Part shown: positions 55,495-62,098 of the stretch, in pieces
Numbering within the stretch: the first letter of the stretch is position 1
How the letters are laid out: each line of letters opens with the position of its first letter
Origin: Escherichia coli
GTDB taxonomy: Bacteria; Pseudomonadota; Gammaproteobacteria; Enterobacterales; Enterobacteriaceae
NCBI RefSeq assembly: GCF_044324875.1
Contig: NZ_CP172185.1
Length of the DNA stretch: 64,000 nt
Direction: 5' to 3' (one strand)
Program-made: the position numbers and the translations under genes
The notes under the pieces: model-generated
Database searches by the model: none
The model's input: the letters and a program-made list of their open reading frames with translations, nothing else
Told to the model about the DNA's origin: nothing

Positions 55495-56034
55495 TTATAC
55501 TTTGTTATTCAAAATCAGTTGCCCGTTGCTATCTAGCGGGATCTGCGTACCCGGATCGCGGTCCACGCGGATTTTGCCCTGCTGATCGCCAATCTTATAG
55601 GTCACATCATAACCGAGCATTTTTTCTGACTTGTCATACACCGTTTTACAACGCTGTTGCGTAGTCGTGTAAGTATCGCTTTCCTGGAGAGAGCCCTGGA
55701 TCTGGTTACCGGCATAGCCACCACCCAGCGCCCCCACAACAGTGGCGACATCTTTACCGCGACCACCACCAAACTGATGCCCTATCACGCCGCCAGCAAC
55801 AGCGCCGAGTACCGACCCGGTAATGCGATTTTCATCCTGCACCGGTCGACGATGGGTCACTGTGACGTTGCGACACTCCTGACGCGGTGTTTTAACCGTT
55901 TCCTTGATTGGGGTTGCAGAAACAACCTGAGCGTATTGCGGGCCACGTTCAAACACGTTCAGACTGGCCACTGCCGCTACGCCCAACGCAGCTGCGACAC
56001 CAATCCCCATACCCGCCAACATTGATTTATTCAC
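55495..56034 (-). CDS. ycfJ: Glycine-zipper membrane/lipoprotein YcfJ
   Basis: ORF 55495..56073; start chosen at the codon giving the 179-aa form (non-ATG here; exact start uncertain). Confidence 0.85.
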   Translation of the reverse strand: MNKSMLAGMGIGVAAALGVAAVASLNVFERGPQYAQVVSATPIKETVKTPRQECRNVTVTHRRPVQDENRITGSVLGAVAGGVIGHQFGGGRGKDVATVVGALGGGYAGNQIQGSLQESDTYTTTQQRCKTVYDKSEKMLGYDVTYKIGDQQGKIRVDRDPGTQIPLDSNGQLILNNKV

Positions 56035-56159
56035 GGGAACACCTCCTTCTTTGCTGTTATGCCAATCATGCAAGCGAAGGAGAAAAGCAGCTATCAGACA
56101 GAAGATGAAAAGCGCGGGAATGGCTGGAAATACTTAAGGATTCGGAGGAGTCTGAAGGA

Positions 56160-56250
56160 ATGCCTGATGCGACGCTTAACGCGTCTTATCAGGCCTACCG
56201 CTCGTACCATTTGTCCAGGGCGGATGAGGCGTTTATGCCCCATCCGTCAG
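56160..56250. repeat. REP-type extragenic palindromes
   Basis: GCCTGATGCGACGCTTAACGCGTCTTATCAGGCCTAC and a related unit between ycfJ and ndh. Confidence 0.45.
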
Positions 56251-56260
56251 TACAAGCCGA

Positions 56261-57565
56261 TTAATGCAACTTCAAACGTGGACGGATAACGCGGTTAATA
56301 CTCCCCACCAGCATCATTAATCCGGTTTTAAAGTAACCATGCAGCGCAATCTGGTGCATTCGGTACAGCGAGATGTATACAAAGCGCGCAATTCGTCCTT
56401 CAATCATCATTGAGCCGCGCGTCAGGTTACCCATCAGGCTACCGACGGTGGAGAAGTTCGACAGCGATACCAGCGAACCGTGATCTTTATACTGATAATT
56501 TTTCAGCGGCTTACCGTTCATCTGCGCCAGAATGTTGTTCATTGCGCAGGTTGCCATCTGATGTGCGGCCTGAGCGCGCGGCGGAACAAATCCCCCTTCC
56601 GGACGCGGGCATGACGCGCAGTCGCCAATAGCGTATATGTCTGGATCGCGAGTGGTTTGCAGCGTCGGTTCCACCACCAGCTGGTTGATACGGTTGGTTT
56701 CAAGACCACCGATATCTTTCAGGAAGTCTGGCGCTTTGATCCCGGCTGCCCACACCATCAGATCAGCCTCAATATATTCACCATCTTTAGTGTGCAGGCC
56801 GCCTTCATCAGCACTGGTGACCATGGTTTGCGTCAGCACGCGAACGCCAAGTTTCGTTAACTCATTATGGGCCGCAGCAGAGATACGTGGCGGTAATGCA
56901 GGCAAAATACGTTCGCCCGCTTCTACCAGCGTTACGTTCAGGGCTTCGTTGGTCAGGCCTTTGTAACCGTAGCTGTGCAGTTGCTTGACCGCGTTGTGCA
57001 ATTCAGCGGAGAGTTCTACACCCGTCGCGCCGCCGCCGACAATCGCAATGTTTACTTTGCCATTCGCGCCCAGGTTGGCGGAGTATTTCAGGAACAGATT
57101 CAGCATCTCCTGGTGGAAGCGACGCGCCTGGTGCGGGTTATCGAGGAAAATGCAGTTCTCTTTGACACCTGGCGTATTGAAATCGTTGGAGGTGCTACCC
57201 AGCGCCATTACCAGGGTGTCATAGGCGATTTTACGTTCCGGAACCAGCAGTTCACCTTTCTCGTCGCGCAGTTCTGCAATAGTGATTGTTTTCGCTTCAC
57301 GATCAATATCAATGACGGAACCCAGCTGGAACTGGAAACCATGATTGCGCGCATGGGCCAGATAGCTCAACGCATCGACGCCTTCATCAAGCGAGCCAGT
57401 CGCTACTTCGTGCAGCAGCGGTTTCCACAGGTGGCTGTGGTTACGATCGACCAGCGTAATTTTGGCTTTTTTCTTGCGTCCCAGCTTATGCCCCAGCTGT
57501 GTTGCCATTTCCAGCCCACCAGCACCGCCGCCGACAATCACAATTTTTTTCAATGGCGTAGTCAA
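56261..57565 (-). CDS. ndh: Type II NADH dehydrogenase Ndh
   Basis: ORF 56261..57592; the 434-aa form ([17 protein letters not shown]...) begins at a TTG codon 5-6 nt after AAGGGGG. Confidence 0.9.
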
Positions 57566-57834
57566 CGTGACCCCCTTAAATTTATTAACCAATTGTTAAT
57601 TAATGGTTATTAACATAGCTCTTAATTAACAACAGGTTACAGCAATGAAAATGTTCTTCGCTAATGAGAATAACATGAATGGTGCATTGGTCATACCAAA
57701 ATTGATGTTAATCAAGTTTTGTTGCTGAAAAGATAGGCGACTTTACCGGGTGAGATCAAAAAACAGAGTTTGTTGTTTATTATTTGAGCGAATTTGTGAG
57801 AGTGATATAGAGTGAGGTGTGTATGGAGGGCGTT

Positions 57835-57960
57835 CGGTAGGCCTGATAAGAAGCGCATCAGGCATTGATGCTCGACTGTCGGATGCGGCGTGAACGCCTT
57901 ATCCGACTTACAGAATTCGGAGCGCATCAGGTACCGGCAAGGTTACCTGATGCGACGAGG
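57835..57960. repeat. REP/BIME-type extragenic palindromes
   Basis: Repeated GCCTGATAAG..GCGCATCAGGC and CGGATGCGGCGTGAACGCCTTATCCG units upstream of ndh. Confidence 0.45.
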
Positions 57961-57964
57961 GCAT

Positions 57965-59555: not shown

Positions 59556-59565
59556 ACTGCTCTCC

Positions 59566-60390
59566 TTATTGTTTTATTAATAGCTGCCGCCAGGTGTCAT
59601 CGGCCAGCCTGATAAATTGTTGATCGCCGGTTTGTCGCCAGCGGTACTCAAACCACCCTGCTTTGAGCATCAGCAGCCAGGGAAACCATCGCCTGACCTG
59701 ACGCCATAATTGCGCCGGATAAATCTTCGCGCGAGTGGCATAGTCATTGACCAATTGCCGGTGCTGGTCAGTATTTTCCACCCACACCGCCGCCAGTTCC
59801 AGCGCGATATCACCATCTCCGGCATACTCCCAGTCGATGAGTTTTAACCCTGACGCGCTATACACTAAATTTCCGGCGTGGACATCCATATGCAATGGAC
59901 TTAAGCGTAAAGGCCGTGGTTCCCGCGCTTTGCGCAGACGTTTTAACCTTCGCAGCCAACCCACTGTCCGCCGAGCCGGATCGCTTTGCTGCCAGTACAG
60001 TTCCAGTAACGGCAACAGCGTTATTCGCCAGCCAAAACGCGGTTGTTGATGTAGATAATACAGCAAGCCTGCCAGTTCGTTGGTATCCGGCAAATACGTT
60101 TTTACCTCGCCGGGCAGATAGTCGACCACCATCCAGTCACGGAGATATAAATGCGGCTTCGGTGCAATACATGCGGGTAATTGTGATAAAGCCCGATACT
60201 GGCGCAAGAACGCGAACCGCGGCGCATCAGGATCGTGCGGCTGACGTACAACAAAACGCTGGCCCTGGTGTTCAATGAGAAAACTCCCGCCACTAAGCCC
60301 ACTATTAAACGTCGTGACGGGATGAAACTGCGGGAAAAAGCGCGACAGCAATTCGTCGCGCGTGATGGGATTATTGCTGCGAAACGGCAC
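59566..60390 (-). CDS. thiK: Thiamine kinase ThiK (YcfN)
   Basis: ORF 59566..60414; 274-aa form begins at a GTG codon. Confidence 0.9.
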
Positions 60391-61012
60391 CTTTACCTGA
60401 CCAGATAATTTCACCCGTCTGCACCAGCATCAGCTGCATTTGTAGGGTCGGAGCGTTAACGTTGCCAGAGGCGCTGGAGTACAGCACGTAATGAGCGCCG
60501 ACATTGCGGGCAATGCCTATGGCTTTACTACGGGTACCTAAACTGTCCTGCGGCGACAAACCTAACTGTTGCTTCGCCATCGACAGCTGCTGGGCGGAAA
60601 CCAGGGTAAATTTACCGTTATTAGCCAGCGCATTTCGCAGCGTTTCGGTCGCTTCTGCGGCATTCAGCGAACCGTTAGTACGGTTGTTAATGCTATCAAC
60701 CAGCAGGACGCTACCCGCAGTCACGCCGTCAGCCCCAAGCATCTTACTGACCATCGGCTGCATTGCGCCATTCCAGTCATAATGGCGAATATGCGGCGCA
60801 GGCGGTGCAGTTTGATCTTCGTGCTCAATTGGGCCTGGCTGCTGCGGGATTGTCGGCACCGATGGCACTGTGGGGACAGGCTGTTGCGGCTCGGCTGGTT
60901 GTTCCGGCGCTGGTTTCACTTCTTCTACCGGCGCAGGTTCACGTTGCCCCACACACCCGGCGAGAAACATCGCCAGCGCGGTAATCAAGGCGTAGCGACT
61001 CATTTTTGTCAT
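60371..61012 (-). CDS. lpoB: Outer membrane lipoprotein LpoB (PBP1B activator)
   Basis: ORF 60371..61015; lipobox FLAGC; Pro/Gln-rich linker. Confidence 0.9.
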
Positions 61013-61025
61013 CAAGATTCACCCC

Positions 61026-61403
61026 TTACAAATATAGATAAAGTCTGACTTTGTGCGCCCCCAGAAAATTGGCGCTGCCGTACAGCGTTACCGCCGAATG
61101 TGCGGGAATGGTAACGCTGCGTGGCCTTTCCAGAGGATGCATCTCCAGCCCTCTGGCGTCATACCAGTAAAAACGATAATGAACGGTAACGGGTTCTTGC
61201 CTTTCGTTATAAAGCGTTGAGGATGCTGAAGGTTGAATATCAGACGTCGAAAGGACGGGCTTTTCTGCACTGATGCCCGCAGCCAATAAAGATGACTCCA
61301 TCACCAGCGATTGCTCATCATTCACCGGAATTTCCGGATGTGAACGACAGCCCACCAGCACTAACAACGCCAGAGACACCAGCCCAAAGCATCCTTTTCT
61401 CAT
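61026..61403 (-). CDS. ycfL: Lipoprotein YcfL
   Basis: ORF track, 125 aa; lipobox LVGC. Confidence 0.9.
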   Translation of the reverse strand: MRKGCFGLVSLALLVLVGCRSHPEIPVNDEQSLVMESSLLAAGISAEKPVLSTSDIQPSASSTLYNERQEPVTVHYRFYWYDARGLEMHPLERPRSVTIPAHSAVTLYGSANFLGAHKVRLYLYL

Positions 61404-61405
61404 CG

Positions 61406-61765
61406 TTACAGACCTTTATGCGCCAGCATTGGTCCCAGCGGACGGCCACCCAACAAGTGCATATGGATGTGGTAAACCTCTTGTCCGCCGTGGCGGTTGG
61501 TGTTCATGATCAGACGATAGCCATCTTCGGCAATACCTTCTTGCTCAGCAATTTTTGCCGCTACGGTGATCATGCGTCCCAGCGCCTGCTCATGCTCAGC
61601 AGACACGTCGTTCACAGTCGGAATGAGGATATTTGGAATGATCAGAATATGCGTTGGCGCTTGCGGCGAAATATCGCGAAACGCCGTTACCAGATCATCC
61701 TGGTAGACGATATCGGAGGGGATCTCACGACGAATAATTTTGCTAAATATAGTTTCTTCTGCCAC
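61406..61765 (-). CDS. hinT: Purine nucleoside phosphoramidase HinT (HIT family)
   Basis: ORF 61406..61783; 119-aa form begins at a GTG codon; HIT motif HIHMHLL. Confidence 0.9.
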
Positions 61766-62098
61766 GACATTTTCCTTTTTCAAATAGCCATGCGTTGCGC
61801 CATGCTACGCCGCGCCACACTGCGAGTATAGAGTATGGTCGAGTTAAACCTGCTCTTTCAACCTTAACTCACGATTTCTTAAGCAAAAAATCGTTTTGCT
61901 GCCGTAGATATCGCCATTATTCCCATTTCTGCCTGCGAATGCGCTGAAAAGACATTCTCTGTTTGGTTTACACGACAAATATGAATGCGTATATTTCTCA
62001 TTTGCATTTACATACAAAATTATTCGCACACTAAATATAACCGCTCATCCCCCTCCTCCGGCATGAGCCTGACGACAACATAAACCAAGAGATTTCAA

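Follow-up and report, generated by a model that had tools for sequence, protein, structure and literature searches.

Genuine, previously annotated GTG and TTG starts in the hinT-to-ycfJ region of an Escherichia coli chromosome, most of them with strong Shine-Dalgarno sequences and one, in thiK, probably poorly translated

What does a run of GTG and TTG start codons say about the genes that carry them? The question is raised by a 64,000-nucleotide stretch of an Escherichia coli chromosome (contig NZ_CP172185.1, assembly GCF_044324875.1; hereafter, the window), in which several minus-strand genes between hinT and ycfJ start with codons other than ATG. The original prediction, made from the sequence alone, assigned non-ATG starts to ndh (TTG), thiK (GTG), hinT (GTG), and ycfJ, all of which are present in the window, and took these codons to affect automated annotation and to indicate low translation initiation efficiency. 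The four genes were chosen correctly and a fifth, nagZ (GTG), was left out. The five non-ATG starts are genuine, but they are textbook cases that are already annotated, and a GTG or TTG start alone is no sign of low expression because Shine-Dalgarno (SD) strength and operon context dominate. We are highly confident in the account as a whole, namely, that these are genuine near-cognate starts compensated by their SDs, with thiK as a poorly translated exception.

The interval encompasses eight minus-strand genes in the order hinT-ycfL-lpoB-thiK-nagZ-ycfP, followed by ndh and then ycfJ, and is flanked on the plus strand by fhuE, upstream of hinT, and comR, beyond ycfJ. Of the 5,426 complete E. 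coli genomes, 5,422 match positions 55,000-62,500 over at least 80% of this segment, with 99.2% identity for the best of them; identity between the window strain and most E. coli genomes is 95-99%. We mapped the annotation of the closest genome (E. coli SC418), produced by the Prokaryotic Genome Annotation Pipeline (PGAP), and the curated annotation of K-12 MG1655 (RefSeq NC_000913.3) onto the window and then read the sequence directly. Five of the eight genes (hinT, thiK, nagZ, ndh, and ycfJ) have non-ATG starts, and the remaining three (ycfL, lpoB, and ycfP) start with ATG. Three of the five, hinT, thiK, and nagZ, lie within a single operon that extends from hinT to ycfP, and ndh and ycfJ are separate transcription units. 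The GTG and TTG codons at all five starts, together with their SDs, are identical in the K-12 and PGAP annotations, neither of which puts an ATG start elsewhere.

All five coding sequences are on the minus strand. Four of them follow an SD at the correct spacing (approximately 4-10 nt upstream of the start): ycfJ (179 amino acids, 55495..56034), with GTG at 56034-56032 and the SD AAGGAGGT at 56048-56041; ndh (434 amino acids, 56261..57565), with TTG at 57565-57563 and the SD TAAGGGGGT at 57578-57570, which corresponds to the AAGGGGG that had been proposed to precede this codon; nagZ (341 amino acids, 58530..59555), with GTG at 59555-59553 and the SD TAAGGAG at 59568-59562; and hinT (119 amino acids, 61406..61765), with GTG at 61765-61763 and the SD AAGGA at 61777-61773. 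The fifth gene, thiK (274 amino acids, 59566..60390), has its GTG at 60390-60388, preceded only by a weak SD-like AGGT at 60398-60395. The end of the interval given in the original prediction, 61783, is not the hinT start: this position belongs to an in-frame TTG (61781..61783, minus strand) located six codons upstream of the real GTG, the outermost start of the open reading frame (ORF), which would yield a 125-amino-acid HinT.

Could the true starts be ATG codons elsewhere, with the GTG and TTG assignments being an artefact of matching ORFs to expected protein lengths? No upstream in-frame ATG exists in the window for any of the five ORFs. Downstream, the first in-frame ATG is codon 65 in hinT, codon 87 in thiK, and codon 20 in ndh. 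All three lie within Pfam domains (HIT starting at residue 12 of HinT, APH at residue 25 of ThiK, and Pyr_redox_2 at residue 6 of Ndh), with the ndh ATG located after the GxGxxG region; thus, initiation at these codons would remove conserved, essential domain sequence. Misannotation is easier to envisage for nagZ and ycfJ, in which codon 5 is an invariant in-frame ATG and a start there would spare the Pfam domains, and for hinT in Salmonella and Citrobacter, in which an in-frame ATG is found six codons upstream of the GTG. The codon-5 ATGs, however, are 18-19 nt from the SD, and residues 2-4 of NagZ (GPV) and YcfJ (NKS) are conserved as amino acids while the third codon positions vary. Because codons 2-4 evolve as coding sequence and the SD is too far from codon 5, GTG is the main start in both genes.

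Initiation data point the same way. Table S2 of the INRI-seq study lists, for annotated K-12 starts, peaks from in vitro INRI-seq (five replicates) beside those from in vivo Ribo-RET (Meydan et al. 2019). Peaks are located on the GTG of hinT (INRI-seq 82-107; Ribo-RET 69.3 at K-12 position 1161885), nagZ (118-219; 9.3), and ycfJ (119-223; 24.4) and on the TTG of ndh (16-40; 101.8). Thus, both assays confirm four of the five starts, thiK being the exception, with 0 in each. The ATG-started neighbors gave 18-24 and 19 (lpoB), 0-7 and 0 (ycfL), and 68-153 and 16 (ycfP). A published N-terminomics table includes a Met-initiated N-terminal peptide of HinT that begins at the GTG and is classed as a GTG near-cognate start, and the "UUG initiation codon" of ndh is named in the title of a 1981 report (Young, Rogers, Campbell, Jaworowski & Shaw, Eur J Biochem 116:165). 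Together with the agreement of the curated annotation, these observations leave misannotation with a negligible probability.

The codons at orthologous start positions provide a further line of evidence for genuine non-ATG starts. A scan seeded with NagZ yielded 80 Enterobacterales loci, from Escherichia to Serratia, Erwinia, Hafnia, and Pectobacterium, with per-gene counts of 73-82 loci. The nagZ start position is occupied by GTG in 74 of the 82 loci (ATG in 4, TTG in 2, ATC in 1, and one misaligned locus), that of ndh by TTG in 66 of the 79 (GTG in 7, ATG in 5, and one misaligned locus), and that of ycfJ by GTG in 67 of the 73 (ATG in 6). At the hinT start, ATG is found in 65 loci and GTG in 16 (81 loci), and at that of ycfP, ATG in 80 and GTG in 1. 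Across these 73-82 loci, synonymous Val or Leu codons never occur at the start positions of hinT, nagZ, ndh, or ycfJ, the pattern that marks an initiation codon.

For three of the genes, conservation extends to the weak codon itself. We compared start codons with synonymous sites in the non-E. coli loci, with test and control sites drawn from identical taxa and no correction for the tree. At the four-fold synonymous sites of these genes (380 sites), the window's base is found in an average of 40% of the cases, and internal TTG-Leu codons of ndh are retained in about 19% of the cases. The start codons fare much better: GTG is retained in 70 of 77 loci for nagZ (91%; 2 of 97 four-fold sites are as conserved), TTG in 63 of 75 for ndh (84%; 10 of 142), and GTG in 64 of 70 for ycfJ (91%; 1 of 74). 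Retention well above that of synonymous sites indicates that the weak codons of ndh, nagZ, and ycfJ are themselves conserved, rather than just any start codon.

Such retention argues for selection on the particular weak codon, that is, for the ndh TTG, nagZ GTG, and ycfJ GTG being kept because they set or regulate expression, for instance, through sensitivity to the levels of initiation factor 3 (IF3) or of the initiator tRNA, and not merely tolerated. Lineages in which the codon has switched are consistent with this possibility. Where ndh starts with ATG, SD energies are -5.6 kcal/mol in Klebsiella pneumoniae and -4.0 in one metagenome-assembled genome, against approximately -12 otherwise; mean SD energies are -8.0 in ATG-start loci versus -11.0 for ycfJ, and -6.9 versus -9.0 for nagZ. 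The weaker SD after a switch to ATG matches the trend described by Belinky et al. 2017 (PMC5622118). Nevertheless, the taxa are not independent and the switches are few; Kluyvera switched ndh to ATG and kept a strong SD; the whole ndh leader is highly conserved, such that the codon may ride on other constraints; and hinT displays the opposite pattern. We therefore put forward selection for the weak codons only tentatively, as an explanation that could hold but that we consider somewhat doubtful. If correct, it would make the weak codon itself functional, for instance, as a ceiling on output or as a sensor of IF3 or initiator-tRNA levels.

The history of hinT is different. Its GTG occurs only in Escherichia, Salmonella, and Citrobacter, with ATG everywhere else sampled, which implies a recent ATG-to-GTG change in one clade; this change came without a change in the SD. 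Codon -6 relative to this start is ATG in all 11 Citrobacter and Salmonella loci, TTG in E. coli and Escherichia albertii, and TTA in E. coli E69. No K-12 initiation peak is reported at the upstream TTG, and the K-12 data support only the GTG. In Citrobacter and Salmonella, judging from these codons, there may be a second or shifted hinT start producing a 125-amino-acid HinT.

The upstream codons also bear on the proposed effect on automated annotation, which turns out to be small and limited to minority upstream-TTG forms of HinT and Ndh. In an exact-sequence look-up, the 119-residue HinT that starts at the annotated GTG was found on at least 1000 contigs and the 125-residue form starting at the upstream TTG on 65; likewise, the 434-residue Ndh with the annotated TTG was found on at least 1000 contigs and a 443-residue form with an upstream TTG on 40. 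The strain's alternative forms of ThiK (282 amino acids) and YcfJ (175 and 192 amino acids) were absent from the collection in the same look-up. Two database oddities concern the same genes. The annotation of SC418 treats both nagZ and nagK as pseudogenes with frameshifts; nagZ of the window is intact (341 amino acids). In the protein database, the unrelated 274-residue ThiK and 341-residue NagZ are placed in the same cluster at 90% identity, which may stem from a fused thiK-nagZ gene call or may be a labelling quirk.

Do the non-ATG codons mark inefficient initiation and low expression, as the original prediction held? In isogenic reporters, the output from GUG or UUG is 10-100% of that from AUG, so an AUG would probably raise initiation in each of the five genes, and thiK shows every sign of poor initiation. 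The other four genes do not follow suit. The hinT, nagZ, ndh, and ycfJ peaks in INRI-seq and Ribo-RET are equal to or above those of the ATG-started neighbors ycfL and lpoB. The SD:anti-SD energies of ycfJ (-13.0 kcal/mol), ndh (-11.9), and nagZ (-9.3) are the three strongest among 25 local genes, compared with a median of -4.8 kcal/mol for the 18 local ATG genes and -4.9 for thiK. Synthesis was estimated from the ribosome-profiling values of Li et al. 2014, as tabulated by Mori et al. 2021, divided by the listed mass, which gives approximately 2,100 copies per generation for HinT, 925 for Ndh, and 300 for NagZ, levels that we regard as comparable to or above that of the ATG-started LpoB (approximately 950). 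Low initiation efficiency is thus an apt description of thiK only, and as a general reading of the five codons it is unlikely.

The weaker codon probably costs some initiation, for which the context compensates. GUG and UUG would be read by the initiator formylmethionyl-tRNA, such that each protein would start with Met. The correctly spaced SD would recruit the 30S subunit, most of all in ndh, ycfJ, and nagZ, where it is unusually strong, and less so in hinT; this design, a strong SD plus a weak codon, would make net initiation ordinary to good. Compensation by the SD could accordingly be the reason why expression is not low, in line with the published trend for sub-optimal starts to be compensated by stronger SDs (Belinky, Rogozin & Koonin 2017, PMC5622118).

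Several observations weigh against this account. Across the 25 local genes, the difference in SD strength between non-ATG and ATG starts has the expected direction but is not significant (Mann-Whitney P = 0.22), and the heights of retapamulin-type peaks are not a strict gauge of initiation rate. The codon-5 ATG of nagZ and ycfJ is 100% conserved, and minor secondary initiation may occur there. The thiK GTG scored 0 in both assays, and its conservation is hard to separate from that of the lpoB codons it overlaps (AAA-GGT-GCC), with N-terminal indels as a further complication.

The case for the thiK GTG comes from elsewhere in the comparison: an in-frame stop is located six codons upstream of it in Citrobacter, Salmonella, and K. 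pneumoniae, which leaves this GTG as the only candidate start. In Serratia and Pectobacterium, thiK has ATG at codon -1. In the window, the thiK GTG falls within lpoB, starting 17 nt before the stop of that gene (TAA, 60373-60371). The two genes overlap by 20 nt, and thiK has a 4-nt SD with an energy of -4.9 kcal/mol and no initiation peak of its own. These features suggest translational coupling, whereby thiK would be translated weakly and mostly by ribosomes coming off lpoB. Rho loading needs untranslated RNA, and a Rho termination region located approximately 500 nt into the thiK ORF (Rho score 3.16, K-12 1163767, approximately window position 59883; Adams et al. 2021) therefore fits poor translation of thiK. 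At the other end of the gene, the thiK stop TAA provides the first three bases of the nagZ SD TAAGGAG (59562-59568, minus strand), so that a ribosome terminating on thiK sits directly on the nagZ ribosome-binding site.

The lpoB/thiK junction also contains a hairpin, GCGCGACG-AATTGC-TGTCGCGC (60340..60361, minus strand), followed by TTTTTCC (tail to 60330). It starts 10 nt beyond the stop of lpoB, at a distance of 30 nt into the thiK coding sequence. Its 8-bp stem contains six GC pairs, and the U-tract TTTTTCC of the window is represented in most other genera by the weaker TATTTCC. The hairpin is kept in 49 distinct Enterobacteriaceae sequences, with 97.7% of cells paired; at one pair, synonymous changes in the two arms have given CG in 27 sequences and UA in 20. 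Covariation scores 0.210, a value that none of 500 shuffles reached (0.129 for shuffles), and slid controls are only 14-58% paired. Distant genera lack this hairpin and instead have an all-GC hairpin, CCGGCGGC-TCAG-GCCGCCGG, approximately 37 nt after the lpoB stop, which is 98.5% paired and includes two covarying pairs. We considered an intrinsic terminator at 60361-60340, which the Term-seq data do not support: the stem and the U-tract fit, but no Term-seq 3' end is listed here. The curated Term-seq table (Adams et al. 2021) contains no thiK or lpoB 3' end, its only thiK entry being the Rho region. An Rfam scan of 39-64 kb matched no family, and scans for promoter and terminator consensus sequences across 55.4-62.1 kb returned counts like those of shuffles (6 vs 6.7; 8 vs 7.1). 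A joint scheme can be envisaged from these sequence comparisons, in which a selected design of near-perfect SD and weak codon (ndh, nagZ, and ycfJ), maintained across Enterobacterales as synonymous sites became saturated, would be accompanied by control of thiK through the covarying, previously undescribed lpoB/thiK hairpin, with another hairpin in its place in other genera; we find this combination rather improbable.

Finally, could the concentration of five non-ATG starts within 6.3 kb be more than chance, through a mechanism that acts locally or at the level of the operon? Given the E. coli start usage of approximately 83/14/3% AUG/GUG/UUG, five of eight has a nominal binomial P of 0.005, and three of the five genes share an operon with tight or overlapping junctions. 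However, about 20 such eight-gene runs are expected in a genome of 4,300 genes. Among the 25 curated core genes from fhuE to potA, 7 have non-ATG starts (P = 0.12), with the local baseline comprising K-12 core genes only, because colinearity with SC418, the best match for the locus, does not extend to the left 39 kb of the window. Furthermore, the codons differ in age, that of hinT being recent and those of ndh, nagZ, and ycfJ ancient, and ndh and ycfJ are outside the transcription unit of the operon. We rejected a local cause on the strength of the genome-wide expectation and consider such a mechanism highly improbable. By itself, the cluster has little discovery value; it serves as a calibration case, in which a sequence-only reader recognized four non-ATG starts, missed nagZ, and over-read their meaning. 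The order-wide conservation of weak codons with SD compensation, the shifted or dual hinT start, and the thiK hairpin are possible seeds for a modest study.

Ahead of its SD, the ndh leader contains an additional element at 57586-57639 (minus strand), a long inverted repeat rich in AT, TAACCTGTTGTTAATTAA...TTAATTAACAATTGGTTA. The folding energy is -23.4 kcal/mol, with z = -2.8, and the 3' arm of the repeat, CAATTGGTTAATAA, is retained throughout the order. Term-seq places a 3' end 60 nt before the ndh start, at K-12 1166025 (approximately window position 57625). The repeat may be an operator or an RNA structure. Further Rho termination regions are located between ycfP and ndh (K-12 1165914, approximately 57736) and at the ndh/ycfJ boundary (K-12 1167599, approximately 56034) (Adams et al. 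2021).

Outside the interval, the start of ldtC (53255-53263, plus strand) consists of consecutive TTG-GTG-ATG codons, of which the K-12 annotation uses GTG (320 amino acids); the ATG one codon later may be the start. The K-12 potB has an annotated GTG start with almost no SD. A 768-bp copy of the insertion sequence IS1 (approximately 42285-43047; InsA/InsB ORFs at 42295-42992, minus strand), inserted relative to SC418, cuts ycfZ to a 230-amino-acid ORF compared with 262 amino acids in K-12. The window from position 1 to approximately 39200 is a lambdoid prophage encoding a tape measure protein, terminase, portal, and integrase and carrying IS3 elements; it adjoins the last ~25 nt of potB, and a match at one location to 80% or more of its first 25 kb occurs in just 17 E. 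coli genomes.

The starts described here have close counterparts among known systems. The curated GUG starts of K-12 hinT, thiK, nagZ, and ycfJ are like those of the window in both genes and start positions, the difference being that the codon eight positions before the thiK start is GTG in the window and GCG in K-12. The 1981 report on the ndh UUG, as far as its title tells, concerns the same gene, codon, and leader, K-12 and the window being identical from the SD through the TTG; nothing differs in this respect, and what is added here is that TTG is kept in the large majority (66) of the Enterobacterales ndh loci. In accord with the trend of Belinky et al. 2017 (PMC5622118), ndh, ycfJ, and nagZ pair a weak codon with the strongest local SDs; in that work, however, selection maintained AUG and acted only weakly on starts, whereas here three non-AUG starts are themselves conserved well above synonymous sites.

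The lpoB-thiK junction resembles termination-reinitiation coupling in that the thiK start is inside lpoB and has a poor SD and in that thiK shows no independent initiation signal on a synthetic transcript with only about 30 nt of upstream sequence; classic coupled pairs overlap by 1-4 nt, whereas here the overlap is 20 nt. For a regulatory role of conserved weak starts, the model is the AUU start of infC, through which IF3 is autoregulated and in which the weakness of a non-AUG codon is functionally exploited. The infC codon is non-canonical and part of a demonstrated feedback loop, whereas those of ndh, nagZ, and ycfJ are canonical GUG and UUG, known here from their conservation across Enterobacterales.

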